DNA of 64,000 nt. Origin: Deinococcales bacterium (GTDB taxonomy: Bacteria > Deinococcota > Deinococci > Deinococcales > JAAFIG01). The stretch covers positions 128,001 to 192,000 of the forward strand of contig JANNVX010000098.1 in NCBI GenBank assembly GCA_031414595.1, written 5' to 3'. Positions 8,730 through 63,797 of this stretch are shown here, piece by piece; within the stretch, counting starts at the first letter, position 1, and the number at the start of each line of letters is the position of its first letter. The position numbers were made by a program, and so were the translations under genes. The notes under the pieces are model-generated. The model saw only the letters and a program-made list of their open reading frames with translations, ran no database searches and was not told where the DNA came from.

Positions 8730-8834
8730 AGAACGCGTAGAATACCTCGGGTTGAACGAAAATAATAATCTGAAACTTATCAGACAATTAACGCGTACAA
8801 TAAGCGCGGGTTTACCCTAAGAAGGAGAAATACT

Positions 8835-26149: not shown

Positions 26150-26320
26150 CTCTCGAGTCTAAAAAATTAAATGAATGATTGATGTGAACCTGGTTCTCAA
26201 GGTGAGATTTTGCAGCACATGATCTGAATTCAATCTCTTTGCAGAGAACCCGTCTCGAGACTAAAAAATGAGAATCAGATGAGCTTCTACAGCCATGGCA
26301 TTATATGCTTTCTTGAAGGT

Positions 26321-46954: not shown

Positions 46955-47485
46955 GTGGCTGGCAAACGCGAAATTATTATCACCACAGGTTTACTTGCGA
47001 TTCTTGGTGGAGCGAGTTTTTTTAGCTTACGCCCCAATGAAATCCCAGCCGCTCAAAATGCCCTCGAGCGTTTACCAATTCGCGTGGCAGTGGCAGGCGA
47101 AATCAAAAAACCAGGAGTTTATCAGTTGCCTTGGGGTTCACGTACCGAAGCGGCGCTGGCTGCGGCTGGTGGAACAACCAGTGATGCCGAACTGAGTTTA
47201 ATCAATCCCGCCCAAATCCTGACCGATGGTGATCAGGTTCGCATACCAAGTAAACAAATCAGTGCCAGCCCAGAAGAACCAGTCTCGAGTAGCACATCCA
47301 CAGGTGAACGCATTAACCTCAACACCGCTACTCAAGCCCAAATCGAGGCTTTACCGGGGGTTGGACCGAAAATGGCAGAACGTATCTTGCAAGCCCGTCC
47401 ATTCTCGAGCCTCAAAGACCTAGATGCGGTTAAAGGAATAGGGACAAGTATGCTTAAAAAACTCGAGCCTCTAGTCAGATTTTAG
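46955..47485 (+). CDS. comEA: Competence DNA-binding protein ComEA
   Basis: TM, SLBB domain (V.VAGE..KPGVY.L), INLNTA...LPGVG and V.GIG HhH motifs. Confidence 0.92.
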   Translation: MAGKREIIITTGLLAILGGASFFSLRPNEIPAAQNALERLPIRVAVAGEIKKPGVYQLPWGSRTEAALAAAGGTTSDAELSLINPAQILTDGDQVRIPSKQISASPEEPVSSSTSTGERINLNTATQAQIEALPGVGPKMAERILQARPFSSLKDLDAVKGIGTSMLKKLEPLVRF

Positions 47486-47559
47486 TCACCTTAGAGTTTT
47501 CATCTTGGTACAGTACAATCGGTCTTTGTGAATTATGCCCAAAGCACAATTGGAGAACT

Positions 47560-49497: not shown

Positions 49498-49498
49498 A

Positions 49499-50140
49499 TT
49501 GTTTGTTGCACAAGACCTTGGGGTTGTGCCGTATCAAAAGGCGTATGCTTTACAACTCGAGGCTCATGCTCGGGTGGCGGCTGGCGGAACACCAGAGCTT
49601 TTGTTACTCGAGCATCCAAGGGTGATTACCCATGGGCGTAAGGATTTGCTAGACACGAATTTATTGTTTCCGCTCGAGACCTTAGCGCGGCTTGGAATAG
49701 ATGTGGTGGCGACCGAACGCGGTGGCACAGCCACCTATCATGGGCTTGGGCAGTTGGTGGCGTACCCAATTTTTAGGGTTGGTCGCAAAGTCCGAGATTT
49801 TCTGCGGCGGCTCGAGAATGTGCAGATTTGGGTCTTGGCACAGTATGGGCTGCAAGCCCGTCCGAACCCCGGTTATGCGGGTGTTTATGTCGGAGACGAT
49901 AAAATCGGCAGTATTGGCGTGGCAATTAAGCAAAACGTGGCGATTCATGGTTTGGCACTGAATATCAATACCAATTTAGCCGATTTTGATTTGATTGTGC
50001 CGTGTGGTTTGCAGGATACCCAAATGACCAGTATGCAAAAACTCTTGGGTTATGAAATCCCGATGCTCGAGGTAAAAAAACAGCTTATTGAGGCGTTCAG
50101 GCTCGAGTTTACAAGTTTTAGAGAAGTTGAAACCGACTGA
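49499..50140 (+). CDS. lipB: Lipoyl(octanoyl) transferase LipB
   Basis: LLEHP.V.T.G, RGG..TYHG.GQLV.YP, KI.SIG, HGLALN, IVPCG; TTG start after GAGGA. Confidence 0.95.
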   Translation: MFVAQDLGVVPYQKAYALQLEAHARVAAGGTPELLLLEHPRVITHGRKDLLDTNLLFPLETLARLGIDVVATERGGTATYHGLGQLVAYPIFRVGRKVRDFLRRLENVQIWVLAQYGLQARPNPGYAGVYVGDDKIGSIGVAIKQNVAIHGLALNINTNLADFDLIVPCGLQDTQMTSMQKLLGYEIPMLEVKKQLIEAFRLEFTSFREVETD

Positions 50141-50208
50141 TTTTAGAGGTACTAATTTTTGACTCCAAAAAAAGCATAAAAACCTCGTGCTAGACGCATC
50201 AATTTTAC

Positions 50209-50253
50209 TTGACTCGAGCAGCTTTTTAGGGTATAATTCTGTGCTGAACGAAA
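50209..50253 (+). promoter_or_regulatory. gyrB sigma70 promoter with overlapping RDRM-like operator
   Basis: TTGACT-17-TATAAT; TTCTGTGCTGAACGAAA at 50237-50253. Confidence 0.75.
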
Positions 50254-50297
50254 TGCGTTAAGCCGATACACGAAAAATTCACGAAAAGAGGAAATCA

Positions 50298-52340
50298 ATG
50301 TCAGAAAATATCAATCCGCTTGAGAACAACGACGACTTTAAGAATTTGCAGCCAATCGAGGATATCGTTGAGAGCGCACCTTTAACGGAAGCCGAACGGC
50401 AAGAAGGGGCTGATAATTACACCGCCGATAACATCAAGGTCTTAAAAGGGCTTGATGGGGTTCGCAAACGCCCGGGCATGTACTTACAAGGTGGTACGGG
50501 CATAGACGGGTTTCATCAGTTGCTCTCAGAAATCATTGACAACGCCATAGACGAAGTTCAAGCCAAATTCGCCGATACCGTGACTGTCACGATTCACCAA
50601 GACGAATCGGTGACAATTACTGACAACGGACGTGGTTTCCCCGTGGATGCAATGGCTTCCGAAGGGGGTCGTCCAGCCGTCGAAGTGACCTTCACCGATT
50701 TACACGCGGGTGGTAAGTTCGACGATGGTGCATATAAGGTCTCGGGCGGTTTGCACGGGGTTGGTGCAAAAGTTGTTAATGCCTTATCGCTTTTTTTACG
50801 GGTGGATATTCGCAAAGGCAAGGATTTGTACCGTATTATGTTTGAAAGTGGTGTGCTGACCGAACCTCTGCATATTATTGGTACAAACGAGGCTGGACGC
50901 AACGGCTCGAGTGTCAGTTTCAAACCAGACCCTGTGGTTTTTAAGGACATTGTGCCGCATTGGGAGTATGCGCGGATTCGGCGTAGGTTACGCGAGTTGT
51001 CGTTCTTGGTCGGTGGCACGAAAATTATCCTAACCGATGAGCGCGACGGACACCACAAAACCGAGACTTTCTTTGAAAAAGGTGGCGTTGCTGCCTATGC
51101 CCGCAGTCTTGTTGGGGATGACAAAATTTTGTATGAACCAGCCGTGTTGCTCAGTGGTTCACACGACGAAATCAAAGTCGAAGTCGGCTTAATTCACAGC
51201 ACTGGCTATACCCCGAATTTACTTGCCTATGCCAACATGATTACCAACCGTGACCACGGTACACACATGACGGGGTTTCGTACTGCATACACTCGCATCC
51301 TGAATAAGTACCTGAAAGACAAAAATATCCTCAAACAAGGCGCAGTTGAACCAATTGGCGATGACTGGCTCGAGGGCTTAAATGTTGTGGTCAGCGTACA
51401 ACTTGGCGACCCACAATTTGAATCAAATGCCAAAGTTAAACTCCTTAATCCAGAAGCGCAAATGGCGGTTAGCCGCGTTGTTTCTGATAAATTATCAGAA
51501 TTTCTCGAGGCAAACCCAAAAGTCGGTAAAGTGATTGCCGAGAAAGCCGCCGATGCAGCCCGCGCTCGAGATGCGGCTCGTAAAGCCAAGGACTTGGTGC
51601 GCCGTCAGAACCCACTCGAGAACGATGACTTGCCGGGTAAATTATCCGATTGCCAAAGCTCTGACCCAGCCGAATCGGAGTTGCTGTTGGTCGAGGGCAA
51701 CTCGGCAGGTGGGACAGCCAAAGGCGCACGCGACAAGAAATTCCAAGCTGTACTGCCTCTGCGCGGTAAGGTGCTAAACGTCGAAAAAGCCCAGATTACG
51801 CAAATCCTCAAGAACACCGAAATCCGCAGTATGATTGCCGCGATTGGCGCAGGTGTCCAAGGCACTGGCGACAATGCCCATTTTGACCTTGCCAATGTGC
51901 GTTATCACCGCATTGTGATTATGACCGATGCCGACGTGGATGGTAGCCACATCAGTGTGCTTTTAATGACCTTCTTCTATAGGTTCTTGCGCCCCATCAT
52001 CGAAGCAGGGTACTTGTACATTGCCCAGCCACCCTTGTACAGATTATCGGTGGGACGCAAAGGCGAGTATATTTTCAACGAAGAGGCACTGAAAAAACGT
52101 TTGGAAGAACTGAATGACAAAACCAACATTTCAATCCAGCGCTACAAAGGGCTTGGGGAAATGAACGCCGAGCAACTCTGGGAAACCACGCTTGACCCAG
52201 CCACCCGCACCATGAAACTGGTCACAATCGTGGATGCACTCGAGGCGAACGAATGCTTTAAGGACTTAATGGGGCAAGAAGTCGCTCCACGCCGAGCCTT
52301 TATTGAAGAGAATGCAGTCTTTGCTAAAGTAGATATTTAA
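50298..52340 (+). CDS. gyrB: DNA gyrase subunit B
   Basis: [57 protein letters not shown]. Confidence 0.96.
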
Positions 52341-52347
52341 GTCTAAT

Positions 52348-52380
52348 AAAAAGCGCACAGCCACAGGCTGTGCGCTTTTT
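52348..52380. terminator. Bidirectional intrinsic terminator
   Basis: AAAAAGCGCACAGCC-ACA-GGCTGTGCGCTTTTT. Confidence 0.9.
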
Positions 52381-52392
52381 CATGGCTCGAGC

Positions 52393-53154
52393 CTAAGCGG
52401 GTTTAGCATTGTCCTCAACAATCGGTTGGTGCAATTCGACTGGCTTAGCTTTGTTACGGGTACTGGCGCGGATGTTCAGGAATTCAACCATCACCGAAAA
52501 GCCCATCGCAAAGTAGACATAACCTTTGGGGATTTTGACTTCAAAGGCTTCGGCAATTAAGGTAAAACCAATTAAAAGTAAGAACGACAACGCCAGAATC
52601 TTGACACTTGGGTGCTTATTGACAAAACCAAAAATCCCAGCCGAAGCAAAGAGCATAATCCCCACCGAAACCAGTACCGCAATCACCATCACTGGAACAA
52701 TCGTGGTCATGCCAACCGCCGTAATTACACTGTCAATGCTAAACACCAAATCCAGAATCAGCACTTGCCCAATCACTGCCGCAAAAGTCGGAGCGACTCG
52801 GCTCGAGACTTCGCCATGTTCACCCTCGAGTTTGTCATGGATTTCTTTGGTGGCTTTGTAGATTAAGAAAATGCCGCCAGCCAGTAAAATCAGGTCTTTA
52901 CCAGAAATACCTTGACCAAAAACAGTGAATAAATCAGCTTTTAATTGCAGAATTAAAGAAATCGAAAATAAAAACAAAATTCGCATTCCACCAGCTACCA
53001 ATAAACCTGTTTGTCTGGCTTTAGCTTGCTGCTCGAGTGGCAATTTGCCTGCCAGAATACTAATAAAAATAACGTTGTCCACCCCTAGAACAATCTCGAG
53101 GGCAGTGAGGGTTAAAAGGGCAGTCCATGCGGCGGGGTCTTGAATCCATTCCAT
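52393..53154 (-). CDS. TerC family membrane protein
   Basis: LEIVLGVDN, D.VFSIDSVITAVG, IPKGY.YFAM.FS. Confidence 0.95.
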   Translation of the reverse strand: MEWIQDPAAWTALLTLTALEIVLGVDNVIFISILAGKLPLEQQAKARQTGLLVAGGMRILFLFSISLILQLKADLFTVFGQGISGKDLILLAGGIFLIYKATKEIHDKLEGEHGEVSSRVAPTFAAVIGQVLILDLVFSIDSVITAVGMTTIVPVMVIAVLVSVGIMLFASAGIFGFVNKHPSVKILALSFLLLIGFTLIAEAFEVKIPKGYVYFAMGFSVMVEFLNIRASTRNKAKPVELHQPIVEDNAKPA

Positions 53155-53239
53155 AAGTTAAGTATACACTGGGAGTTTGCGCCGAAAGCCATGGGGGCTA
53201 AATCACAATTGGCATCGTAAAGAATGAGATAATTTACCT

Positions 53240-54061
53240 ATGCAAATCAGTGTCATCACTCCAACACATAACCGAATGGCACTGCTCGAGAAGTTGCTGA
53301 ATTCACTCGAGCAGCAAACATATACCGATTTTGAAGTGGTGATTGCGGTGGATGGCAGCACCGACGGCACACTGACCTTACTTGAAGTGATCAAGCGCCG
53401 TGCCAAATTAAAACTCGAGGTGTTGGTACTGCCCCAAGGCGGTCAGGCTCGAGCCAGAAATGCCGCCATCAGAGCCGCCAATGGCAAAATTTTACTCTTT
53501 GCCGATGATGACCTGACTTTTGCACCAGATGTACTGGCGCGTCATGCAGCTTTTCATCAGGTCTTCAAGCAATCTATGGCGATTGGGGCGGTGCAGTATC
53601 CAAATGGGAAAATAGATTTTCCAAATAACCCGAGTTGGATCAATTTTACTGGCATGAATACCAGTTTGCCAAAAAATGTGGCGCTCGAGCAGCATAGTTT
53701 TGATGAGGGTTTATCTGGGTATGGTGGTGAGGATTTAGAATTTGCGCTTCGGCTCGAGAAATCTGGGCTTAAAATCAGGCGTTTGGCAGACACCCTTGCC
53801 TTTCATGCGGGTGAACAAATTCGCAACCCAAAAAAGGCATACTCGGCGGGTTATCAGGCGGTGAAAATCGCTCAGAAGTACGGCGACACGGTTGCTATGC
53901 AGCTTGGTGTTCATCCGAGTTTACTAGCTGCCAAACAGCTTTTACTGAATCCAATTGGTGATGTTCTCTTAAAGTCCGTATCCGATTATGCCTTTGAACG
54001 AGCTTACTTAAATGGCGCACGCGAGGCTTGGAAAGAAATCCATAATCAAAAATCAAGTTAA
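53240..54061 (+). CDS. Glycosyltransferase family 2
   Basis: ISVITPTHNR, VDGSTDGT, ARN, FADDD, FDE...GGEDLE. Confidence 0.9.
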   Translation: MQISVITPTHNRMALLEKLLNSLEQQTYTDFEVVIAVDGSTDGTLTLLEVIKRRAKLKLEVLVLPQGGQARARNAAIRAANGKILLFADDDLTFAPDVLARHAAFHQVFKQSMAIGAVQYPNGKIDFPNNPSWINFTGMNTSLPKNVALEQHSFDEGLSGYGGEDLEFALRLEKSGLKIRRLADTLAFHAGEQIRNPKKAYSAGYQAVKIAQKYGDTVAMQLGVHPSLLAAKQLLLNPIGDVLLKSVSDYAFERAYLNGAREAWKEIHNQKSS

Positions 54062-54070
54062 ACTTAGGGC

Positions 54071-55096
54071 ATGTCTGTTCCATTATTTACTCGAGCCATT
54101 TCCAATCAACCCCTTTGTTTAGAAGATGCCGAAGGCTTAATGGGTCTGATTATGGATGGTGAATTATCGGCGGTCAAAACCTCGGCGGTTCTGGCGGCGC
54201 TGCGGGTGCGAGGCGAAACTGTGGGAGAGGTGACGGGTTTTGCCAAAGCCATGCGCTCGAGGGCAGTACATGTTCCCGTAGCCAGTGGCACATTGGTAGA
54301 TACTTGCGGCACAGGTGGCACTGGCACAGCCAACTTTAATATTTCCACCGCCAGTGCTTTTGTGGTGGCGGCGGCGGGGGTGCGGGTGGCTAAACATGGC
54401 AACCGCACTGCTGGTAGACCATCGGGTAGCGCCGATGTTCTCGAGGCATTGGGAGTCAAACTCGAGCTTAGCCCTGAGCAAGTCGCCATGGCAATTGAAC
54501 AAATTGGGATTGGCTTTTTATTTGCCCGTTCGCATCATCCCGCGATGCGAAATACCGTGCCAGTCCGAGCCGAATTAGGCATTCGCACCGTATTTAACAT
54601 TTTGGGTCCACTGACCAATCCAGCCGGAGCAACCCATCAGTTGCTTGGGGTAGCCGATAAAAATATGGTCTTACTGATGGCAAATGTATTACAGCAACTT
54701 GGCATTACAGGGGCAATGGTGGTCTATGGTCAAGCCCCAGATGGCACACGCTACGATGATGTCTGTGTGGCTGGCACAACCCAGATTGCCGAAGTGCGAG
54801 GCTCGAGTATCCGTGAGTACACCATTTTGCCACAAGACTTAGGACTCGAGTTACACCCAAGCAGTGCTTTACTGGGCGGCGATGCCAGCACCAATGCAAC
54901 CATCGTTAAAGCTGTTCTGGGTGGAAACGGTACAACCGCCCAGCGCGATGCCGTCGCCGCCAATGCAGGAGCAGCCCTATACATTGCCGAGGCTGCCAGC
55001 AGTCTCGAGACAGGGGTCAGTTTGGCGTTAGAAATCCTAAAAAACGGTGCGGCACTCCAAAAACTCGAGGCATTGGCGGCTTTTTCACAACGATAA
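54071..55096 (+). CDS. trpD: Anthranilate phosphoribosyltransferase
   Basis: DTCGTGG, FNIST, VAKHGNR, HHPAM, RTVFNILGPL.NP. Confidence 0.96.
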   Translation: MSVPLFTRAISNQPLCLEDAEGLMGLIMDGELSAVKTSAVLAALRVRGETVGEVTGFAKAMRSRAVHVPVASGTLVDTCGTGGTGTANFNISTASAFVVAAAGVRVAKHGNRTAGRPSGSADVLEALGVKLELSPEQVAMAIEQIGIGFLFARSHHPAMRNTVPVRAELGIRTVFNILGPLTNPAGATHQLLGVADKNMVLLMANVLQQLGITGAMVVYGQAPDGTRYDDVCVAGTTQIAEVRGSSIREYTILPQDLGLELHPSSALLGGDASTNATIVKAVLGGNGTTAQRDAVAANAGAALYIAEAASSLETGVSLALEILKNGAALQKLEALAAFSQR

Positions 55097-55145
55097 GGCG
55101 AAAGTCGAAAGGAAAAGACCTTTTAACCCTCAAAGCTCATAGCTC

Positions 55146-55658
55146 TCAGGCTTTGACCAACAACCTGCGTCGAAACTCAAGGAATGCTTGGGCTGTCACT
55201 TCAACATCAGCTAAGGCGCGGTGGCGATTAGTGGCAACTATTCCCAATCGTGTACAAATCGCATCTAGGTTATGGCGTGATTCGTTTGGAAAGGCTTTTC
55301 TGGAAAGTTGCACCGTGCAAGTGGCTCGAACTGGGGCTTCTAAACCAAGTCGGGCGGCGTTGGCTTTGACAAAACCAATGTCAAAACTGGCATTGTGTGC
55401 CACAAGTTGCCTGCCTGCCACAAACTCGAGAAAACTCGGTAGTGCTTCTTCGATGCTTGGGGCGTGTTGCACCATGCGGTCGGTGATACCGTTGATTTTA
55501 GAAATATAAAAAGGAATGCGGCGCTTTGGTTGCACCAGTGTTTCAAAAGTTTCTGAGGTGATGATGTCATTTCGCACGACCAATGCACCAATCTCGAGAA
55601 TTGCATCTCGGTCTGGGCTTAACCCCGTGGTCTCGAGGTCAAAAATAACAAATTCCAC
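55146..55658 (-). CDS. DEDDh 3'-5' exonuclease (DnaQ/Pol III epsilon-like)
   Basis: FDLETTG, AHNASFD, HRALAD; GTG 55658 has TAATCT 7 nt upstream (leaderless). Confidence 0.92.
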   Translation of the reverse strand: MEFVIFDLETTGLSPDRDAILEIGALVVRNDIITSETFETLVQPKRRIPFYISKINGITDRMVQHAPSIEEALPSFLEFVAGRQLVAHNASFDIGFVKANAARLGLEAPVRATCTVQLSRKAFPNESRHNLDAICTRLGIVATNRHRALADVEVTAQAFLEFRRRLLVKA

Positions 55659-55683
55659 AGGGTTTAGATTAACACCCTTTGAC
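55592..55683. repeat. Direct repeat copy 1 (exonuclease -10 box + first ~22 codons)
   Basis: Matches 56526-56616 with 3 substitutions and a 1-nt indel. Confidence 0.95.
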
Positions 55684-55692
55684 TTGACGTAG

Positions 55693-55728
55693 TTGACAAG
55701 CATTTTTGAACTGTTTAGACTGTTCAAA
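55693..55728 (+). promoter_or_regulatory. TA operon promoter with palindromic operator
   Basis: TTGACA-17-TAGACT; TTTGAAC-N10-GTTCAAA straddles the -10. Confidence 0.8.
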
Positions 55729-55736
55729 CGATATTG

Positions 55737-56147
55737 ATGATTCGGACTAGCCCGCAAATTGTTTACCCTTGGCATCCAGAACGCTTGGATCATAAAAATC
55801 CTTTGATTATTGAGGATTTATTGGTCATGTCGCACAGCAAAAGAATCTGCGCCCAGAAATGCAAGCAGATGATTGGGGATTTATGCGTCAATGGTAAGGA
55901 AAGCCGTTACCGTAAACACCTCGGTGGTGTGTTATGGGAACTTAAAGACCGCACTTCAGATGGGGGAGCGCGAGTGTATTTCTTGCAAAATACACTCAAC
56001 CAATTCTTTGTTTATCATGCCGAATGCAAGAACGAAAACCAAGCCACACAAACACTTTTAAGCGATGGCTTAGCCATTAGAAACGCACTTGCCGCGAAAG
56101 TCCCGATTCAGCCCACTTGGTACGGCAAAAGAAAGAGGCAATCATGA
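55737..56147 (+). CDS. Putative type II toxin, RelE/HigB/Gp49-like
   Basis: KHLGGVLWELK...GGARVYF...H...K pattern; ATGA overlap with downstream HTH gene. Confidence 0.65.
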   Translation: MIRTSPQIVYPWHPERLDHKNPLIIEDLLVMSHSKRICAQKCKQMIGDLCVNGKESRYRKHLGGVLWELKDRTSDGGARVYFLQNTLNQFFVYHAECKNENQATQTLLSDGLAIRNALAAKVPIQPTWYGKRKRQS

Positions 56148-56518
56148 AAAACACCCTACTTGATGAAGTCCAAGCCATGCTTGGAACACCCCCTGTTGAT
56201 GTCGTTGTTGCCGAAGGCTCGAGTTTTGTGATTGAGGATTTTGCAACTTTTTCCAGTACCCTCGACCAACTAATTGCAGTTCAAACCGTTGGTGATGGAC
56301 TGCGCCAAGCCCGTAAACGACGCAAATTAACCAGCCGCCAATTAGCAAGCCAGCTTGACCTAAGCCAAACACGAATTATGGAAATGGAACGGGCAAACAC
56401 CGAACTTGAATTAAGAACGGTGGCTCGAGTCGCAGAAGGTCTTGGTTATCGCCTTAAACTCGAACTTATTCCCAATGATGCCAATGAACCAACCATCAGT
56501 GTGACCATGCCAATGTAA
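56144..56518 (+). CDS. XRE/HTH protein, putative HigA-like antitoxin
   Basis: LRQARKRRKLT..QLA..L..SQ.RI..ME......L.T..RVA..LG..L.L. Confidence 0.82.
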   Translation: MKNTLLDEVQAMLGTPPVDVVVAEGSSFVIEDFATFSSTLDQLIAVQTVGDGLRQARKRRKLTSRQLASQLDLSQTRIMEMERANTELELRTVARVAEGLGYRLKLELIPNDANEPTISVTMPM

Positions 56519-56525
56519 AAAGTAT

Positions 56526-56616
56526 TCTTGAGAATTGCATCTCGGTCGGGGCTTAACCCCGTGGTCTCGAGGTCAAAAATAACAGATTCCACAGGGTTTA
56601 GATTAACACCTTTGAC
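56526..56616 (-). repeat. Direct repeat copy 2: truncated 5' fragment of the exonuclease gene
   Basis: Encodes (M)ESVIFDLETTGLSPDRDAILK, then diverges. Confidence 0.93.
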
Positions 56617-56625
56617 CGATGAACC

Positions 56626-59034
56626 CTACTTGCCGGGGCATTTGGTTGGACCGTTCTCAAGTGTGCCTGTTCTCGAGCAGATGACTTGGGTGACATTATC
56701 AAGACTCACTTCGGCGGTGACTGGTGTATCAAAAGTAAATAATCCCCTAGATTCGCCAAGGTCAGAAACATTGATTGTCCCGTCTGGATTGGTGCTGCTT
56801 TCGCGGTAGGCGGTGATGTCGTACTGCCCCGGCTCGAGGTTGTCAAAAGCAAAAGCGCCATTTGCACCAACGGGCGTGTCTGGGTAATTCAAACGGGTGC
56901 GTTTATCGGCACTTTCGACGCGGTAAATTCTTAAGAAATACCCAATTGGATTACTGAGGACACTGTTGCCTTGGTTGTAATAGACCCGTTGCTCGAGACT
57001 GCGAGTGCCGTACACAAGATTGATTCGTCCAGCGAACTGCCCATTGAGTCCGCTTCGGTTGAGATTAACAGTCATGATTTGGGTGGCGTTGGCAGCAAGG
57101 GTGGCTGTGCTTGGGCTGATACTTAAGCCATTTCCGGTGGCACTGATGTTTAGGGTGGCGGCTGTATCGCCGATATTTTGAATTGTAAAGGTAGCTTGGT
57201 TTTGACTCGAGCCAAGGTTGATTTCACTTGGATTGGTTCGCACAATAACTGCCCCAATACTTGGTAAGACAGATGCTTTCTGCATGGCGCTACTTGCATC
57301 GAGTAAACCAGCCCCACAACCTTGGTTACAACGGGTTAAACCAGTTAGACTCGAGCTATCGGTTAAGTACGAACGAATCCGTACCCAATTATTGGGGTTT
57401 GCGTCGCGCAGAGCCGCATTTTTACTCATCATTAGGGCAATCACACCCGCCACATGCGGCGAAGCCATCGAAGTGCCGTGGTACGAGCCGAAGCCAAAAT
57501 TCGCACAGGGCGGGGTTGTTCCACCAGACGGACTGTAATACTGTCCGACATCACCAGTGCCACACCCCAAAGTGGACAAGACCCCATCTTCGGAGATGTT
57601 GCGTTGGGCAAAATCTCCTCCAGGAGCAACCAAGGCAACGGTTGAACCATAATTCGAGTAGCTGGCTCGAGCCTTATCTGGGGCAAGTGCGCCAACTGGG
57701 ATGACACCCTGAAGATTGGCAGGGGTGAACAGCGCTGCATCTATGTTGCTGTTGCCAGCCGCCACAACCACAACGATGCCTTTGGCATTGGCAGCATCCA
57801 CGGCGGCTTGTAAGACTGGGCTTGGGGACTGTTCCCCGCCTAAACTCATGTTGATGATGTTGGCAGGGTTTGGATTAACTGGAATTGTGCCAAGCGGAGA
57901 ACTGCTCATCCCAGCCGCCCAGTACACGGCTTTGGCAATATCTTCAATAGAGCCTCCCGAACCATCCAATGCCCGAATTGGTAAAATCTGGGTTTGCCAT
58001 GCCACACCCGCCACACCAAGGGCATTGTTGCTGCAAGCCCCAACTGTGCCAGCTACGTGTGTACCATGAAAACCAGCGTTGGGGTCTGAATCAAAAGCAT
58101 TATTGTCATTTTGCACAAAATCATAACCAGGTAGGATTTTGGGTTTTCCGGGCGCTACTTCACAATTGAAATCTGGGTGTTGCTTGGCGGGGTCGGTCGC
58201 ATCCCAAAGAATTCCAGAGTCCAGCACTGCCACAACCACTCCCGCGCCCACATCACTACTGCTCGAGAAACCATCCCAAGTGATGGGTAAGTTCAGCATC
58301 CCATAATGCCATTGCTTGGCGTACAACGGGTCGTTGGGTGCAGCTTGGGTTTTTAGAATGGTATTTGGTTCGGCACTAAGAACATCAGGGCGTTGGCGTA
58401 AACTCGAGACAAATTGTAAGGTTTCTAGCGCACTTGTGCCTGTCACTCGAGCATTCGCATTTTGCAGTCTGGCTCGAGTCTTGATGCTTGGGGCTTCAAG
58501 CACTGCCGTATTGCCTGTAATCCAAGACTTAACCGCTAGTTCTGCACTTTGTAGGCGCAAAGCACTGCTGGGGTTCTTAAATTGGACGATTGCTTCGCCA
58601 AGACGCATCTCAGCTTTTTCATAACCACGAAGCGAAGCAAATTGCACCCCCGGACGCACCACACCGCTAATACTCGAGCAGTTCTTGGCTTGGGTATCGG
58701 GTAGTAAATTAACCTTAATCGAGTTGCTTTGCACCACATTCTGCCCATCCGTTATCCGCACCGTAAAAACCACGCTCTGATTGGCTTGGGTGGTGGTTGG
58801 GGTTTGTAACCATGTGGCAGTTGCTCCAAATTTATCAAATGTTCCTGTGGCTGGTGAAGCCTCAAAGGTGTAATTCAAAGCTGCATTTTCGGGGTCTCGA
58901 GCCGTGACAGTTAAGTTGACCGATTGGCAGGGCGAAACCGTGGTACTCGAGATAACAAAATCATCTAACAAAGGCGGTAAGTTCCGAGTGCAAGAAAGCA
59001 GCAAGATAGGCAACAGAAAAATAATGCGACGCAT
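56626..59034 (-). CDS. S8 subtilisin-family serine peptidase, lipoprotein
   Basis: Lipobox LLSC; LDSG, HGTHVAG, AAGN, GTSMASPHVAG. Confidence 0.95.
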   Translation of the reverse strand: MRRIIFLLPILLLSCTRNLPPLLDDFVISSTTVSPCQSVNLTVTARDPENAALNYTFEASPATGTFDKFGATATWLQTPTTTQANQSVVFTVRITDGQNVVQSNSIKVNLLPDTQAKNCSSISGVVRPGVQFASLRGYEKAEMRLGEAIVQFKNPSSALRLQSAELAVKSWITGNTAVLEAPSIKTRARLQNANARVTGTSALETLQFVSSLRQRPDVLSAEPNTILKTQAAPNDPLYAKQWHYGMLNLPITWDGFSSSSDVGAGVVVAVLDSGILWDATDPAKQHPDFNCEVAPGKPKILPGYDFVQNDNNAFDSDPNAGFHGTHVAGTVGACSNNALGVAGVAWQTQILPIRALDGSGGSIEDIAKAVYWAAGMSSSPLGTIPVNPNPANIINMSLGGEQSPSPVLQAAVDAANAKGIVVVVAAGNSNIDAALFTPANLQGVIPVGALAPDKARASYSNYGSTVALVAPGGDFAQRNISEDGVLSTLGCGTGDVGQYYSPSGGTTPPCANFGFGSYHGTSMASPHVAGVIALMMSKNAALRDANPNNWVRIRSYLTDSSSLTGLTRCNQGCGAGLLDASSAMQKASVLPSIGAVIVRTNPSEINLGSSQNQATFTIQNIGDTAATLNISATGNGLSISPSTATLAANATQIMTVNLNRSGLNGQFAGRINLVYGTRSLEQRVYYNQGNSVLSNPIGYFLRIYRVESADKRTRLNYPDTPVGANGAFAFDNLEPGQYDITAYRESSTNPDGTINVSDLGESRGLFTFDTPVTAEVSLDNVTQVICSRTGTLENGPTKCPGK

Positions 59035-59124
59035 GACTCAGCGTACCGCAAAAAATGTTTTTGAAGTGAGTGCAAATTCACCTCACCCTTGGTTTGCAAC
59101 AATGGCAGATGTTACACTCGAGCT

Positions 59125-60333
59125 ATGACCCAAGACCCAGTGTTTGATTTGATTACCTTAGAGCATGAGCGGCAACGCGACGGCTTAGAACTGATTGCCT
59201 CAGAGAATTTTACCAGTGCCGCCGTGCGTCAAGCTGTCGGCAGCGTTCTGACCAACAAGTATGCCGAAGGCTACCCAGGTAAACGCTGGTACGGTGGCTG
59301 CGAAGTCGTGGATAAAATCGAGCAACTGGCGATTGACCGACTCAAAGAACTCTTTGGGGCAGCTTGGGCAAATGTCCAACCGCATTCTGGCTCGAGTGCC
59401 AATATCGCGGTTTACAGTGCGCTCTTAAAACCCGGCGATACGGTCTTGGGCATGGATTTGAGTCATGGTGGGCATTTAACCCACGGCAGCCCAGTCAATT
59501 TTTCTGGCTTAAATTACAAAGTGGTTGGTTATAAAATCCGTCAAGCCGACGAATTACTGCATATGGAAGATGTTCGGGCGCTGGCACTGGAACACAAACC
59601 CAAAATGATTATTTGTGGTGCAAGTGCCTACTCGAGAACCCTAGATTTTGCGGCTTTCCGTGCTATTGCCGACGAAGTTGGCGCGTACTTAATGGCAGAC
59701 ATTGCTCATATTGCGGGACTGGTGGCGGCTGGGGTGCATCCTAGTCCAGTGCCACATGCCCATGTGGTCACAAGCACCACCCATAAAACCCTGCGTGGTC
59801 CGCGAAGTGGGATTATTTTTTCTAACGACCTTGAAGTGGCAGCCCTACTTGACCGCAGTATTTTCCCCGGCACGCAGGGTGGTCCACTCGAACATGTGAT
59901 AGCTGGTAAAGCGATTGCTTTTGCCGAAGCCTTACAGCCAGAATTCAAGCTGTACTCGAGTCAGATTATTAAAAACGCTCAGGCAATGGTGGCAGCCTTT
60001 CAAAAACGCGGCTATAAAGTCTTGTCGGGCGGCACAGACAATCATTTATTTGTGCTTGACATTCGTCCGCTTGGTCTAAATGGCACAAAAGCCAGTCGGA
60101 TGCTCGACGCGGCACACATCACCATTTCTAAAAGTACCCTGCCATTTGACACCGAAAAAATCATGCACGGTGGCGGAATTCGGATTGGTACACCCGCCAT
60201 TACCACCCGTGGGATGCTTGAAGCAGACATGGAAACCGTGGCTGACCTGATAGACCGCACCCTGTGTGGCGCAGACCCAGAAGCCATGAAATTAGAAGTA
60301 AAGAATTTTGTCTCGAGATTTGTGCTGCCTTAA
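59125..60333 (+). CDS. glyA: Serine hydroxymethyltransferase
   Basis: [40 protein letters not shown]. Confidence 0.98.
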
Positions 60334-60340
60334 ACGGCGT

Positions 60341-60556
60341 TAAAACTTGTCCTGAAATAACTTCCCGATTTGGGAATGGTGTTTTCATTATTCCCAAGCT
60401 GGACAGACACAGGGGTCTCTTGACCATAAGATGCGGTCGCCTGTCCCTACAAAATTCATGAAACACGTCAGGTAGGGGCGGACCCCTGTGTCCGCCCTGT
60501 GACCAATCGTATGTTTTTTGTCTGGAAATCAGGAAACTATTCTTAGGCAGTTCCTA
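60341..60556. mobile_element. MITE-like element, copy B: degenerate terminal inverted repeats enclosing a REP pair
   Basis: Ends match 19/31 as inverted repeats; REPs at 60401-60450 (interrupted) and 60472-60497 GTAGGGGCGGACCCCTGTGTCCGCCC. Confidence 0.72.
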
Positions 60557-60567
60557 GGTTCATTGCC

Positions 60568-61182
60568 TTAAAGTGCATTCAAAACTCGAGCTTCTAACGC
60601 CGATAATTCTTGTTTGGCTCGAGGAAAAACCCCAAGGGCATCGTGTAACTCGAGGGCAGAAAAGAGGTCGCTCGAGACAACTTCTCCCCACTTTGGCTGG
60701 CTACCCCAGAATTCGGCGCGTAACATCCATGTGGTTTCTTGTTTATACGCCACGGCATAAGCTGCACCGAGTTCACGCAGCACCGAAAAAGTAGCGGTCT
60801 CTGAACGGGCTTGCTCGAGTCGTACCACAGGCACTCGAGGGCGCAAGCGCAAAGTGGCACTTTCAATCCGAACACGGTGGCTTAAACTGGCATCTGAACC
60901 AATAACAAGGCGTACAGCATCGTACCCTGCTACATTCTTGACGACTTTTCCACCAACACTGACCGTACCGTGAGCCGCCGTATAGGTTAGCCCAAGGACA
61001 TCTTTACGCATTGGTGGCATCTCGAGCAAGCCAAGCCCGCCAGACAACAACCAATCCTCGAGCGTCAGTGGCAAGCGTGGAGCGCGGTACTGCAAGCCAC
61101 TTGGCAGGGCAGCCTCGAGTTGTTCTAGGGTAGTGTCGCCAGATACAATCGCGTATTGGTCTTCGGGGTTTATTTCAATCAT
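60568..61182 (-). CDS. Short FAD-binding oxidoreductase, GlcE-like
   Basis: GGKVVKNVAGYD..RL.IGS, A.LRL.P. Confidence 0.75.
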   Translation of the reverse strand: MIEINPEDQYAIVSGDTTLEQLEAALPSGLQYRAPRLPLTLEDWLLSGGLGLLEMPPMRKDVLGLTYTAAHGTVSVGGKVVKNVAGYDAVRLVIGSDASLSHRVRIESATLRLRPRVPVVRLEQARSETATFSVLRELGAAYAVAYKQETTWMLRAEFWGSQPKWGEVVSSDLFSALELHDALGVFPRAKQELSALEARVLNAL

Positions 61183-61247
61183 GGTCTTAGACTAACCAAT
61201 TTTCATGACCAGTGCTTTTTGCCGCTTGATTTGTGCTACAACAAAGC

Positions 61248-61997
61248 ATGAAACGATTTTTATTGGCTGCCCTGACCTTCTCGAGTTTTATGGCACTGAT
61301 TCCATCTGCGCCGACGGCTGCCACAGTCCAAGGCTTACCTTTAATTCGTGAACAAAATAGTTTTTTGGCAACCGCTCGAATAGATTCCCAAAACTTAAAA
61401 GTACGGGTTCTCGAGTACAACGCAGCCTATAGTGGCATCGTCCATGCGTATTTTATTTCTAAGGATTTCAAAAATTATTATTTTCAGTACCCTGACGAAA
61501 CCGAAAAAGGTTCTTATCTACTACCGTTACCACCGATGGAAGCTGGCACTTATGACCTGATTCTCGAAATTACAGGTGGCAACGGTCATGCCCATAACAA
61601 TCCGCGTTTTGTGCAAGTTTACCCAGTCAATTTTGAAGTGCTGACCAGCAGCCCAGAACTCGAGCCAATTCGTCGTTTGGCATTAAAAGAAACTGTGCCG
61701 AACCTTAAACCAGCAGGACAAGTCTCGAGTTTTGAACTAACAACCCTGCTAGATGGTGCGCCAGTCGCATGGAATCCGTATTATGTGCATCAGTTTATTC
61801 TAAAAACCGATTGGTCATATTTTAAGCACGATCATCCCAACGCTAAAGAACAGGGGCTTGGTTCAGTGCAGAGCAATTTTACCTTCCCAAGCGCTGGTGA
61901 ATATGTGTTGTGGCAATTTCTCGAGACAGGTGTGCGGGTGGCTGGTCAAAAATACAACCCTGTTCTGCGTTACCCAAGTCTGTTTAAGATTAACTAA
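61248..61997 (+). CDS. Secreted hypothetical protein, His-containing, two related domains
   Basis: Signal peptide; H.Y.IS.DF..Y...P / H..I...D...F.H.HP...F.FP..G.Y.LW. Confidence 0.65.
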   Translation: MKRFLLAALTFSSFMALIPSAPTAATVQGLPLIREQNSFLATARIDSQNLKVRVLEYNAAYSGIVHAYFISKDFKNYYFQYPDETEKGSYLLPLPPMEAGTYDLILEITGGNGHAHNNPRFVQVYPVNFEVLTSSPELEPIRRLALKETVPNLKPAGQVSSFELTTLLDGAPVAWNPYYVHQFILKTDWSYFKHDHPNAKEQGLGSVQSNFTFPSAGEYVLWQFLETGVRVAGQKYNPVLRYPSLFKIN

Positions 61998-63043
61998 TTT
62001 GGTCTAACCAATTCAACTTGTACCGAACTGATGGTTTGCGCTGCCACTTCAAGCATAATAAACGGGCTGGTTGGGGTGTTGCTAAAATTATTGCCCGTCG
62101 GTTCGCGTAACTCGAGGGTGATTCTTAGCGTGCCACGGTCAAAGTTCGCGCTTTTATAAGCAAGGCTGTAGCCTGTGGTCGGTTTACGCCCAAGGAAGAC
62201 CGTGACCATACGGCGATTGAAGAAATCTATTTTTGGTGTTACTGGAACTGGGTTTTGACCACCCAGCGCGATTTGCCAAGTGCGGGCGTAATCATCGGCG
62301 GTACTGTCTACCCTTGCCCAAAAATTCGTATCTCGGTGGGTGCTGAATGCACCAACGGCGGTGACATCCAAGACAGGATTGAGTGGCGCTGGCGCATTTT
62401 GTTGTAACCACATGCCCTCATAACCAAATTGGACTGCCAGCACCGAACGCCGTGTGCTGTTCGGGGTTGGGTTAAAACTGGTCTCGTTGCCATCTAAACT
62501 CGAGTCTGGCAGGGTGGCAATTAAAAATGCACCACGAGATTTGAGGTAGCCTTCTAAAGAGGTTGCTTCGTCTTTCCATAAACTACCAGCCCCAAGTAAA
62601 CCATCTCGAGGGGTGGGCAGGGTGTTGAGTTGTTCGCCAGCCTTTAATTTCTCTAAGACGGTAAACCAGCTTTTACCATCCCAAAGGTACACCGAACGCA
62701 AATCGGTGTTGGCTTTGATCGTCATGCGTTCGCCACTGCGTTTGGCACTAAAGGCGGCTAAGTTACTGGTTACAGGCAGTTGCCAACTGCCGTTGCCGTT
62801 GACTTCAAGTGCGCCGCTGACCTGAAACCCTTGGGTGTTTTGACTGGGGCTTTGGATTTCTAAGGTTTGGTTACGCCCAGCCACACTGCCCTCGAGTTTA
62901 CGTTTGAAGGTATTTTCTTGGTCATAAAAGACCACATGACGCTCGCCTAAACCGAGCAGCACAATGTCTGAGACTGTGTAGGACGCTTTATCTTGCGCTA
63001 ATGCAACAGCACCAACGAGCAGGACGGTCAAAAGTCGCTTCAT
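61994..63043 (-). CDS. Secreted protein with C-terminal PrcB-like domain
   Basis: Signal peptide; P.IDF...V.VFLG.KPT.GYS...P...TSPF. Confidence 0.72.
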   Translation of the reverse strand: MKRLLTVLLVGAVALAQDKASYTVSDIVLLGLGERHVVFYDQENTFKRKLEGSVAGRNQTLEIQSPSQNTQGFQVSGALEVNGNGSWQLPVTSNLAAFSAKRSGERMTIKANTDLRSVYLWDGKSWFTVLEKLKAGEQLNTLPTPRDGLLGAGSLWKDEATSLEGYLKSRGAFLIATLPDSSLDGNETSFNPTPNSTRRSVLAVQFGYEGMWLQQNAPAPLNPVLDVTAVGAFSTHRDTNFWARVDSTADDYARTWQIALGGQNPVPVTPKIDFFNRRMVTVFLGRKPTTGYSLAYKSANFDRGTLRITLELREPTGNNFSNTPTSPFIMLEVAAQTISSVQVELVRPN

Positions 63044-63110
63044 GAGTATAGTGTAAAGTATTTCTCAGCCCATTGCATGAGGTGTAACCCAAGGAAAGAG
63101 ATTAAAAAAT

Positions 63111-63797
63111 TTAGGCTTTTAGTAATCCAAGGTCAGCCGAATTTAATTCGCGCCACTCACCGGGGCGTAAATCATGGATTTGTAAGCCACCAATTCGGGT
63201 TCGCATTAAGCGCAGCACCTCAAGACCGACCGCCGCCACCATTCGCCGTACCTGATGCTTGCGCCCCTCAAGCAGCACCATTCGCAAACCATCCTTTGCC
63301 TTAAATAGTGCGTGTGGTTTGGCTTCCCCATCCTCGAGCATGACCCCTGCAAAAAGTGCCTCGAGTTGGTCAGGACTTGGGACTGGCTCAGTCCAAACTC
63401 GGTATTCTTTTTCGTGATGATACCGAGGATGGGTTAATTCTAAGGTTAAAGCCCCGTCTGTTGTCAAAATCAGCAACCCTTCCGAAGCCCGATCCAAACG
63501 CCCAACTGGATGTAACCCTGATACGCTCGGCACAAGCTCGAGAACCCCTTGCCGCCCGAGTTCATCCGAAGCACTGGTCACCACCCCACGCGGCTTATAC
63601 AAGGCAAAAGTCACCTGTCTAGCTAAAAACTCGAGCCGCTTGCCATCCACTTGTACATCATCGGTCTCGAGTGCCGATTGCCCAAGAGTCGCCACCACCC
63701 CACCCACCGTTACCCGACCCTCGAGCAACAAATTTTCGGCTGCCCGCCGCGAAGCCACCCCCGCCCTCGCCAAGAGCTTTTGCAAACGCTCAGACAT
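63111..63797 (-). CDS. rRNA pseudouridine synthase (RsuA/RluB family)
   Basis: RLQKLLARAGVASRR S4 domain; VGRLD..SEGLL.LT.DG; EGRKHQVRRM. Confidence 0.95.
   Translation of the reverse strand: MSERLQKLLARAGVASRRAAENLLLEGRVTVGGVVATLGQSALETDDVQVDGKRLEFLARQVTFALYKPRGVVTSASDELGRQGVLELVPSVSGLHPVGRLDRASEGLLILTTDGALTLELTHPRYHHEKEYRVWTEPVPSPDQLEALFAGVMLEDGEAKPHALFKAKDGLRMVLLEGRKHQVRRMVAAVGLEVLRLMRTRIGGLQIHDLRPGEWRELNSADLGLLKA

Follow-up and report, generated by a model that had tools for sequence, protein, structure and literature searches.

Within the 64,000-nt window (the whole stretch of DNA that was analysed), which comes from an uncultured Deinococcales bacterium, the beginning of a gene for a DEDDh 3'-5' exonuclease is present twice, with starts 934 bp apart. 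One copy of the duplicated segment belongs to the intact gene, whereas the other is a fragment lying 9 nt past the stop codon of the neighbouring protease gene. Based on the open reading frames and Pfam matches, the inserted DNA between the copies contains one promoter/operator and two genes, on the strand opposite to the exonuclease gene, and nothing else (Table 1).

Table 1. Features of the exonuclease locus, in window coordinates.
Feature	Position	Strand	Remarks
DEDDh 3'-5' exonuclease gene (RNase_T family)	55146..55658	-	Target gene, intact, GTG start; PF00929, E 5.8e-42
Copy 1 of duplicated target	55592..55683	n/a	Heads the intact exonuclease gene
Inserted DNA, 842 bp	55684..56525	+	Single copy in the genome; missing from empty sites
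Promoter-like site, TTGACA-17-TAGACT	55693-55721	+	Consensus promoter scan
Palindrome, TTGAAC-N10-GTTCAA	55706-55727	+	Overlaps the promoter-like site; read from the sequence
Toxin gene, 136 aa	55737..56147	+	Predicted HigB/RelE-superfamily fold; divergent Gp49 (PF05973) member
Antitoxin gene, 124 aa	56144..56518	+	XRE-type HTH; HTH_3, E 1.8e-6
Copy 2 of duplicated target	56526..56616	n/a	Dead remnant of the exonuclease 5' end, at its native position
S8 subtilase lipoprotein gene	56626..59034	-	Upstream neighbour of the exonuclease gene

A gapped alignment pairs 92 nt of copy 1 with 91 nt of copy 2, with three substitutions and one indel; without gaps, 55592-55679 aligns to 56526-56613 (88 nt, 95%), and the copies have an exact 36-mer in common. 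BLAST of the 92-nt segment against the whole 4.49-Mb assembly identified these two copies and no others. On the minus strand, the segment comprises 25 nt of upstream sequence, the GTG at 55658-55656, and 22 exonuclease codons. Copy 1 has one C more than the relatives at about position 55676, and copy 2 has three derived substitutions, including one that changes CTCGAG to CTTGAG; the reading frame of copy 2 is lost after 21 residues (ORF 56446-56592). A preliminary description of this DNA had given the repeats, their coding content, the state of each copy, and the cargo between them, all of which agree with these analyses. It had also placed a -10 box within the repeat; however, the consensus scan gives no minus-strand promoter there.

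The antitoxin start codon overlaps the toxin stop codon (ATGA). Against PF05973, the toxin scores 19.7 bits, under the Pfam gathering cut-off of 23.9, and PF05973 appears in the precomputed annotation of 6 of 14 toxin homologues. Neither NCBIfam nor PADLOC assigned the toxin to a family, and a PDB search with the single toxin sequence returned chance matches only. The toxin profile matches HigB 6af3 (E 0.0044). AlphaFold2 modelled the toxin with a pLDDT of 86.9, and the top seven Foldseek matches to this model are all HigB chains (E 1.8e-6 to 3.8e-4), the best being 6af4_C (E 1.8e-6, TM 0.61/0.69); based on the model, the toxin is predicted to have the RelE/HigB fold.

Homologues of the cassette occur in genomes G001 (89%) and G018 (70%). 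Because the promoter-like site and the palindrome are both kept in these two other contexts, they likely form an autoregulatory operator. Homology among the copies begins at the -35 box and stops within the last codons of the antitoxin gene, so the cassette ends are not defined element ends; the C-terminal tail of the antitoxin differs in each of the three contexts. For the cargo, dN/dS is about 0.08 (values of 0.086 and 0.077; range 0.077-0.096), which points to purifying selection. The cargo is thus a functional-looking predicted toxin-antitoxin (TA) pair, as had been proposed.

Empty sites and the occupied allele

Four of seven same-genus genomes have a single-copy empty site, at which the two arms overlap by 91 nt (G005), 92 nt (G004), 78 nt (G003), or 68 nt (G006). 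In the empty allele, the S8 protease gene lies directly upstream of the exonuclease gene in the same frame, and the 33-nt spacer between the two genes is the insertion site. The joints are 92 bp apart on the target, and therefore the spacer, the GTG, and the 22 exonuclease codons are found on both sides of the insert and the gene survives. In run X6, which belongs to a different study, a 555-nt contig has 55595 joined directly to 56530, omitting 934 nt, with 10 differing letters over the 555 aligned nucleotides. Occupied and empty alleles coexist in strains that are 2-3% apart.

The source genome is a short-read MAG (120 contigs, 94% complete, 4.49 Mb), and an assembly artefact or a strain chimera would mean that the duplication and the cassette are not on one molecule. 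Logan contigs are interrupted within the repeat, and the contigs of run X1 leave the cassette interval uncovered, although a contig gap proves nothing. The two copies nevertheless differ at four positions, and each variant was assembled with its own flank. Read-level evidence, in the form of assembled contigs rather than raw reads, also argues against an artefact: a 958-nt Logan contig of run X3 spans 55621-56578 in the occupied form with copy-specific letters, the shared 36-mer has about double depth in X3 (43.2 vs. 20.9-26), and the depth of the cassette (20.9) compares with 26 and 24.3 on its flanks. The left joint is covered in run X5 from an independent study (55573-55832); an exact search of metagenome contigs for this joint gave 0 matches, and a protein-guided search of those contigs gave one distant locus. 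We therefore find an artefact hardly credible. Given that four genomes of the genus and a contig of a separate study have the empty site with a single copy, sequence comparison confirms the locus as an insertion with target duplication and not a mis-assembly, in agreement with the earlier proposal of an insertion that restores its target.

We found no integrase, transposase, or other mobility-gene Pfam family in the insert or in the 11 scanned neighbouring ORFs of at least 120 aa. The recombinase-free zone includes the insert and about 8 kb on either side, where the neighbours are housekeeping genes (gyrB, lipB, trpD, glyA, and others); the absence of a recombinase noted in the preliminary description thus extends beyond the cassette.

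Bracketed loci and the CTCGAG palindrome

An objective genome-wide scan for repeats identified 40 bracketed loci after deduplication, with TA, restriction-modification (RM), or defence cargo in 20 of them. Of 27 HigB-like loci in other genomes, five have brackets of this type. A second polarised case is cassette B1 (C98:84901-85639), where G003 has a single copy. Sequence comparison thus indicates a general traffic in small cassettes, flanked by duplicated target sequence, both here and in related genomes. Such a traffic had been suspected from two apparently empty duplications in the window, but these are an unrelated 32-nt pair, 58 bp apart and 88% alike, at 8713 and an unrelated 17-nt pair, 102 bp apart, at 26151. 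At other bracketed loci, relatives often lack a clean empty site and have other DNA in its place, and some brackets may therefore have other origins. Two candidates were rejected as clean empty sites: for the MazF locus (C67), the relatives' flanks are on different contigs, or 1.7 kb apart in G005, and for the ParE locus (C75), the cassette and repeats recur in G001 with three repeat copies and an unmatched right flank.

An integrase acting in trans could produce a similar bracket if the 92-nt segment were an att site and the cassette were either a miniature, CIME-like integrative element that is not autonomous or what is left of a larger one. It is common for integrative elements to bring along the end of the gene they target and to restore that gene. 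This behaviour is also discussed in passages of Furuta, Abe and Kobayashi 2010 (PMC2853133). In keeping with such an origin, the bracket at C56 duplicates tRNA genes, as integrases do, and at the exonuclease target G001 has 2.2 kb of other DNA that starts from the same right-hand boundary, after TTTGAC. However, we found no second copy of the segment in G001, the repeats at the other loci are unrelated and have no sequence in common, and the cassette lacks conserved ends across its three contexts. Neither the insert nor the surrounding 8 kb or so encodes an integrase. The locus shows neither the recombinase nor the conserved att cores and ends of an integrase-borne element, and we consider this origin very unlikely.

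The sequence CTCGAG is located at 55593-55598, at the edge of copy 1, and again inside the repeat at 55631, as had been reported; of the two joints, just one has it. The window contains 350 CTCGAG sites, compared to 7.6 expected, and the genome 23,235 (5.2 per kb, or every 193 bp). As it is the commonest hexamer of the genome, one occurrence at a repeat edge means little alone, and we rejected the focal occurrence as evidence by itself. The density in the relatives' loci is 3.5-11 per kb. Genome-wide, CTCGAG is found at 21 of 80 repeat edges, compared to 13.5 expected, a modest excess that lends weak support to the earlier suggestion that the motif assists insertion. Using edges shifted locally by 15-150 nt as a control, 30 of 104 edges are near CTCGAG, compared to 16.6 in the control, with no excess at distance 0 from the edge (11 vs. 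9.1). A null based on random genome positions (6.7% within 3 nt) was dropped, as it overstated the excess relative to the locally shifted control. The profile of the XhoI endonuclease family (PF04555) has no match in the genome and likewise none in 14 control genomes.

A tentative wider reading, which we regard as doubtful, is that in this Deinococcales family CTCGAG marks places where the chromosome is cut and joined, feeding a recombinase-free splicing of addiction and defence modules (TA, RM, and others) into core genes. Whatever lies between two neighbouring cuts would be duplicated, so that the targets would survive, and the focal cassette would be one product. The strongest hints for such a route are three duplications with both ends exactly on CTCGAG: G000:C106:70165-70914, G000:C44:11322-12982, and the 181-nt repeat of G009 in L094.

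Formation and spread of the insertion

Beyond the insertion of the cassette and the duplication of 92 bp of target, which the comparisons establish, we think it probable that the joints were made by host break repair rather than by a site-specific enzyme. The breaks would have been staggered, with one on or next to a CTCGAG, and the joints would stem from illegitimate end joining or template switching. That 40 loci have this anatomy with repeats unrelated in sequence favours such an origin. Moreover, the toxin is predicted to have an RNase fold, not that of a DNA-cutting nuclease; cargo of this kind could not itself make the break, and so the host's own break repair is the likely agent. No break, intermediate, or enzyme was seen at the locus. 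Ordinary homologous recombination, acting via the flanks or via the repeats, may spread the allele among strains or remove it, and loss of the cassette by recombination between the repeats would be countered by the toxin (addiction).

The preliminary description had instead proposed a Campbell-type integration of a circle of about 0.9 kb carrying a host gene start. On this view, a circle of about 0.93 kb, holding the cassette and one 92-nt host segment, would have been recombined into the chromosome by RecA. It might have been excised from an occupied allele in a different cell or have formed when a restriction fragment ligated to itself, and the CTCGAG at one joint is as expected for a ligated fragment with CTCGAG ends. 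A length of 92 bp is sufficient for RecA, and the coexistence of both alleles in closely related strains also accords with a circle. The four differences between the copies, whose pattern counts against host repair in that it also fits a single-crossover integration, are distributed such that copy 1 is ancestral at the first three positions and derived at the fourth, with the reverse in copy 2; a single crossover placed between positions 60 and 84 would yield this pattern. However, when four differences are assigned at random, 5 of the 16 patterns fit one crossover, and three changes in the dead copy are also expected under relaxed constraint. A circle accounts for re-integration at the same site but not for the first arrival of the cassette beside a host segment, and the unrelated repeats at 40 loci would each need their own pre-made circle. 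Because both copies contain the exact 36-mer, contigs built with k=31 cannot give evidence specific to a circle. A circle seems possible but rather unlikely to us, and the explanation by host repair does not need it.

The compact genome can evidently accept selfish cargo in a 33-nt spacer with both neighbouring genes kept. As the lineage contains dozens of such events, many of them polymorphic among close relatives, the mechanism may be inferable from their joint statistics and testable in relatives that can be cultured and are naturally competent (such as Deinococcus and Thermus).

Relation to known systems

TA cassettes of integrons and superintegrons and XerCD pdif modules are small, promoter-bearing, and repeat-bracketed, and are sometimes found in tandem arrays; their attC and pdif repeats are conserved recombination sites served by a dedicated recombinase. 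The focal cassette is likewise small, promoter-bearing, and repeat-bracketed; however, the repeats described here differ from locus to locus, each being copied from the local target.

As in HigB-HigA systems (Gp49/PF05973 branch), the toxin gene precedes the HTH antitoxin gene with overlapping stop and start codons, the predicted toxin fold is that of the RelE superfamily, and a palindromic, here putative, operator lies over the promoter. Unlike the solved HigB proteins (S. pneumoniae HigBA 6af3/6af4 and V. cholerae HigBA2 5jaa), to which it has 18-20% identity, the focal toxin falls below the Pfam threshold and is extended at the N terminus by about 20 residues (PWHP motif), as are its relatives.

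The CTCGAG palindrome resembles HIP1 (GCGATCGC) of cyanobacteria, which is described in passages of Elhai 2015 (PMC4390886) as a short palindrome that is over-represented tens of times and conserved across the lineage. HIP1 has been linked, in excerpts of PMC4390886, PMC5861425, and PMC13756078, to illegitimate or site-specific recombination and to the precise insertion of repeat modules. CTCGAG is likewise short, palindromic, and conserved in its lineage, and it exceeds the >15-fold over-representation that defines a HIP, both genome-wide and in relatives. It differs from HIP1 in sequence and in phylum (Deinococcota), and its association with insertion joints is a weak, statistical one. In abstract-level searches, we found no paper that pairs CTCGAG with highly iterated or over-represented palindromes and, one unrelated mention aside, none that links iterated palindromes to Deinococcota.

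How TA and RM modules move between and within genomes without a mobility gene is an old question. The closest known kind of event is insertion with long target duplication, reportedly described for RM systems by Nobusato et al. in 2000 (Gene 259:99) and a descriptive category since then. According to passages of Furuta, Abe and Kobayashi 2010 (PMC2853133), RM insertions of this kind have repeats of 30-420 bp and no mobility genes, require no circle, and occur mostly in naturally competent lineages, Thermus among them; the authors propose that DNA cleavage by the cargo itself drives the event. As in the RM insertions of that paper, the focal unit is a selfish unit of <20 kb (842 bp) without a mobility gene, the direct duplication exceeds 30 bp (92 and 91 nt) and is of a unique target rather than a multi-copy element, the duplicated segment overlaps a gene end, as is often the case there, and a related genome has a one-copy empty site. 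In contrast to RM insertions, the focal cargo is a type II TA pair and lacks the R and M genes for which that study screened, so its self-cleavage idea cannot apply; the multiplicity is high, with 40 bracketed loci in one genome, and a hyper-abundant palindrome may be connected with the insertions. An abstract-level search of the literature found no description of TA cassettes inserted with long target duplication. The same footprint is seen here for a TA module whose toxin has a predicted RNase fold rather than a DNA-cutting nuclease fold: a recombinase-free kind of insertion previously known for RM genes here carries TA cargo and is common in the genome.

The duplicated gene start and the cassette between its copies

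The cassette lies between two direct repeats (95% identity over 88 nt ungapped; 92 versus 91 nt in a gapped alignment, with three substitutions and one gap). BLAST against the entire assembly (4,488,778 bases in 120 contigs; the window is C98:128001-192000) found two copies only of the repeat and a single copy of the 842-bp interval. The minus strand of the repeat carries the start of a gene predicted to encode a DEDDh exonuclease, with its GTG, 22 codons and the preceding 25 nt. The product matches PF00929 (E 5.8e-42) and, in NCBIfam, DEDD exonuclease and DnaQ-type models. Copy 1 runs on into the whole exonuclease gene, and copy 2 loses the reading frame after 21 residues. The alignment and BLAST search confirm the repeats and their exonuclease 5' end as given in a preliminary description of this DNA; a "-10 box" that it placed within them is unsupported, since a consensus scan found no minus-strand promoter there. 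The extra C of copy 1 brings a cassette-derived ATG in frame, 15 codons upstream of the exonuclease GTG, and the exonuclease may have gained an N-terminally extended form through the insertion.

The predicted toxin scored 19.7 bits against Pfam Gp49, under the 23.9 threshold, and NCBIfam models assigned it no family. In a large protein collection it has 14 relatives, 6 of them annotated with PF05973, and the 14-sequence profile matches the solved HigB of S. pneumoniae (E 0.0044). Its AlphaFold2 model (pLDDT 86.9, pTM 0.82) matches the HigB chains of 6af4 and 6af3 (E 1.8e-6 to 7.5e-5, TM 0.56-0.71), followed by HigB2, M. tuberculosis HigB1, RelE and YoeB. The second protein carries an XRE-type HTH (HTH_3, E 1.8e-6) and matches a Y4mF-family antitoxin model below its cut-off. 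Comparison with the copy in G001, a genome of the same genus, gives the toxin a dN/dS of 0.086 and the antitoxin one of 0.077, indicating purifying selection on both; the addiction cargo proposed earlier stands, as a predicted HigB-fold toxin with an XRE-type HTH partner. The operator palindrome is kept in all three contexts in which the cassette occurs. A HigB/Gp49-like family with an N-terminal PWHP extension is strongly expanded: the window's genome has 12 matches, and relatives have as many as 10. In-frame stops interrupt several of these.

Features of the focal locus and repeat-bracketed loci (C, contig of the window's genome, G000; L, fetched locus)
Feature	Position or locus	Strand	Basis
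Repeat copy 1	55592-55683		Alignment, BLAST
Cassette	55684-56525		BLAST
Repeat copy 2	56526-56616		Alignment, BLAST
Exonuclease gene	from copy 1 to 55146	-	PF00929
Cassette-derived ATG extension	55701-55658	-
Promoter-like TTGACA-17-TAGACT	55693-55721	+	Consensus scan
Palindrome TTGAAC-N10-GTTCAA	over promoter's -10 region	+	Sequence
Toxin ORF, 136 aa	55737-56147	+	ORF call
Antitoxin ORF, 124 aa	56144-56518	+	ORF call; ATGA overlap with toxin ORF
ComEA-like gene	46955-47482		SLBB and HHH_3 domains
PIN or PIN_3 cargo	C104, C30, C50, C14-66324 (with HicAB), C88-6226, C106		Pfam
MazF/PemK cargo	C106, C67, C73		Pfam
ParE cargo	C75, C95		Pfam
Gp49/HigB with HTH partner	C14-4771, C44-11158, focal locus		Pfam; focal toxin by fold
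HicA cargo	C90		Pfam
NYN with HTH partner	C98-104188		Pfam
AAA_15/AAA_21 ATPases	C18, C25		Pfam
Schlafen-AlbA_2 protein adjoining Type ISP gene	C64-33455		Pfam
C5 methylase with partner ORF	C44-14281		Pfam
N6/N4 methylase with partner ORF	C98-76486		Pfam
Bracketed HigB-like loci, other genomes (G017, G005 (two loci), G004, G009)	L074, L078, L080, L087, L094

Occupied and empty alleles

We searched 41 genomes at the DNA level and compared the seven of the same genus further by local BLAST and alignment; the cassette is absent from this site in all seven. In G005, G004, G003 and G006, the protease gene, a single copy of the segment and the exonuclease gene are consecutive, and matches to the window's two arms overlap by 91, 92, 78 and 68 nt, respectively. 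G001 also has one segment copy only, with 2.2 kb of other genes separating the protease and exonuclease genes; G002 carries ~0.4 kb of unmatched DNA at the site, and in G007 the two flanks are on separate contigs. The empty allele has 33 nt between the protease stop TAG and the exonuclease GTG, which is in the same frame; this spacer leaves no room for an insert unless part of the target is duplicated.

Logan contigs of run X3, a possible source sample, include one of 958 nt (55621-56578) that passes from the interior of copy 1 through the cassette into copy 2, and the contigs of both flanks end within the repeat. An exact 36-mer common to both copies has a depth of 43.2, versus 26 for the left flank, 20.9 for the cassette and 24.3 for the right flank. 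In two runs from other studies, a contig of X5 spans the left joint (55573-55832, 7 differing letters), and a 555-nt contig of X6 links 55595 to 56530, omitting 934 nt (10 differing letters over 555 aligned nt); both alleles are therefore present in strains 2-3% apart. Because this evidence consists of contigs rather than reads, a circle and the share of cells with each allele are invisible to it. The X6 contig and the single-copy sites in four of the seven genomes bear out the earlier reading of an insertion that restores its target.

The 2.2 kb in G001 (L013, G001:C428:976-3235) comprises three ORFs, two of them lipoprotein-like. This DNA shares its starting boundary with the focal left joint (window 55683; after TTTGAC, then TTG), and the protease gene there lacks its last ~15 codons. 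This spot may be recombination-prone.

Repeat-bracketed cargo and CTCGAG across the genome

We scanned the genome against itself (blastn) for direct repeats 30-400 nt long and separated by 400-4000 bp, after removing contigs C101, C11, C49, C22, C100 and C103 and the C82 array as CRISPR or tandem arrays. The scan yielded 52 pairs, merging into 40 loci, and 20 of the 40 carry addiction or defence cargo, as a raw share. The remaining 20 comprise tandem paralogues, a tRNA array, repeats within long genes and cargo with no Pfam match. Repeat sequences are locus-specific, and many of them cover part of a neighbouring gene at its start or end. Among HigB-like loci fetched from other genomes, the toxin gene lies between direct repeats in 5 of 27 (repeats of 31-181 nt, spaced 876-1440 bp); the repeat pairs of L089 and L097 do not enclose the toxin gene and were left out of this count. 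These brackets support the general cassette route suggested in the preliminary description, although the "empty" duplications it cited at 8713 and 26151 were wrong as examples.

In each of two arrays, C106:69490-70914 (L031) and C98:84901-86289 (L023:9902-11290), a 35-59-nt repeat occurs three times, and a distinct cassette fills each of the two intervals. The C106 array holds a MazF pair and a PIN_3 gene; the C98 array holds two pairs of a small protein and a retropepsin-like aspartyl protease. Polarity was checkable for a few loci only. At cassette B1 (C98:84901-85639), G003 has a single repeat copy; G007 has B1 and is missing ~660 nt where the window's genome carries B2. At a lipoprotein cassette (C98:82364-83119), G001, G003 and G006 have one repeat copy with different DNA downstream, and two other bracketed loci that were checked gave no clean empty site.

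Pairs of the small protein and the retropepsin-like protease (PF13650/PF13975) occur three times as cassette cargo (G000:C98:85095-86272 and 79036-79527, L023), and they may represent an undescribed two-gene addiction or defence module. At G000:C56:1-2584 (L026), 12 tRNA genes are arrayed on one strand, and a perfect 136-nt duplication (tRNA-Ser GCT and part of the next gene) brackets ~670 bp with no integrase. Within the window, the intergenic region separating the divergent ORFs 6273-8729 (minus) and 8835-9236 (plus) contains a tandem duplication of a 32-nt segment at 8713-8802 (58-bp period, 88%), which looks like a duplicated promoter region.

CTCGAG occurs 350 times in the window, versus 7.6 (sd 2.7) in shuffles. 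Its genome total is 23,235 (5.2 per kb), higher than that of any other hexamer, and 69% of TCGA sites fall within it. The remaining NTCGAN palindromes are almost absent (ATCGAT 89, TTCGAA 29, GTCGAC 26), and GGCC (152) and GATC (2432) are also strongly avoided. With 3.5-11 per kb in relatives' loci (L002-L016, L069-L098) from at least three genera, CTCGAG is a hyper-abundant palindrome of the HIP (highly iterated palindrome) type; our literature search found no report of it as an iterated palindrome. At this density, one site at a repeat edge is unremarkable alone. Across the 52 pairs, 30 of 104 edges lie within 3 nt of CTCGAG, compared with 16.6 (sd 3.6) in locally shifted controls (0 of 1000 controls reached the observed value); across the 40 loci, the figures are 21 of 80 and 13.5 (sd 3.2; 14 of 1000). 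At distance 0 there is no excess (11 of 104 versus 9.1; 284 of 1000, 52 pairs). The excess at repeat edges is real but modest. It could stem from microhomology, CTCGAG being the likeliest shared hexamer, from older repeats whose alignments stop at conserved CTCGAG islands, or from cleavage at CTCGAG. Both repeat ends fall exactly on CTCGAG at C106:70165-70914, at C44:11322-12982 and in the 181-nt repeat of G009, a further relative; at the focal insertion, one joint lies beside CTCGAG and the other (TTTGAC|TTGAC) has no site.

Joining of the fragment and comparison with known systems

The same operon occurs elsewhere in G001 (contig C180, 89% identity); G018 and G016 (another genus; 70-74% identity) carry it at a third location, which is conserved. 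In an alignment of the three contexts, common sequence is confined to the stretch that begins at the -35 box and stops a few codons short of the antitoxin stop; the antitoxin C-terminal tail differs in each, and no terminal inverted repeats or conserved ends were found across them, which argues for illegitimate joining of a fragment rather than a defined mobile element. As described earlier, the insert encodes no recombinase; 11 neighbouring ORFs of at least 120 aa (46955-63797) belong to housekeeping families (including ComEA-like, Wzz, LipB, GyrB, TerC, glycosyltransferase, SHMT and pseudouridine synthase) or to none, and a separate Pfam scan identified TrpD and the protease. The ComEA-like gene fits natural competence in the lineage. 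In G001, 8-mer TAAACGTA arrays flank the operon on both sides (L014; G001:C180:91-131 and 1004-1170), and a second operator-like palindrome follows the antitoxin gene.

A fragment of promoter, operator and two genes is attached to the chromosome through two joints that lie 92 bp from each other on the target; the target stretch they delimit occurs on both sides, and both neighbour genes keep their ends. Host break repair probably made both joints, through two staggered breaks or nicks with fill-in and end joining, through a fragment bridging two genome copies broken at different places, or through template switching. The lineage is known for multi-copy genomes and fragment reassembly, which makes the bridging route plausible. 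The preliminary description instead proposed Campbell-type integration of a ~0.9-kb circle. Compared with six relatives, the three substitutions between the copies are derived in copy 2 (one turns CTCGAG into CTTGAG, 5 nt from the joint) and for the extra C, 8 nt from the other joint, copy 1 has the derived state; the X5 strain has the copy-1 states. Campbell integration with one crossover between positions 60 and 84 would produce this pattern, but 5 of the 16 possible assignments are compatible with one crossover, and the pattern is explained as well by weaker constraint on the dead copy or by errors of synthesis close to the joints. The pattern does not decide for or against a Campbell crossover, and of the earlier interpretation the circle and CTCGAG assistance are unproven.

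The allele would travel between strains by ordinary homologous recombination in its long flanks. Recombination between the 92-bp repeats would drop the insert and leave cells with toxin and without antitoxin, so selection would favour retention. The intact exonuclease gene would now be separated from the protease gene that formerly preceded it, and protease-gene transcripts would enter the dead fragment and then reach the antitoxin gene in the antisense direction.

Insertion with long target duplication was reportedly first described by Nobusato et al. in 2000. In Furuta, Abe and Kobayashi (2010; PMC2853133), it is characterized by a single-copy empty site in a relative, a unique duplication of >30 bp and an insert of <20 kb with no mobility genes, features shared by the focal insertion. 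Their repeats are about 45-420 bp, mostly from naturally competent species, and include a Thermus case involving a tRNA gene; breakage of DNA by restriction-modification (RM) systems is proposed there as a possible driver (PMC2853133). Whereas that screen required R and M genes, the cargo here is a toxin-antitoxin pair, and our literature search found no report of toxin-antitoxin cassettes inserted with long target duplication. The C106 and C98 three-repeat arrays resemble an integron array but differ in having no attC-like conserved site. The kind of event is already known for RM systems; the present case differs in its toxin-antitoxin cargo and high multiplicity, in a lineage with a HIP-like palindrome.
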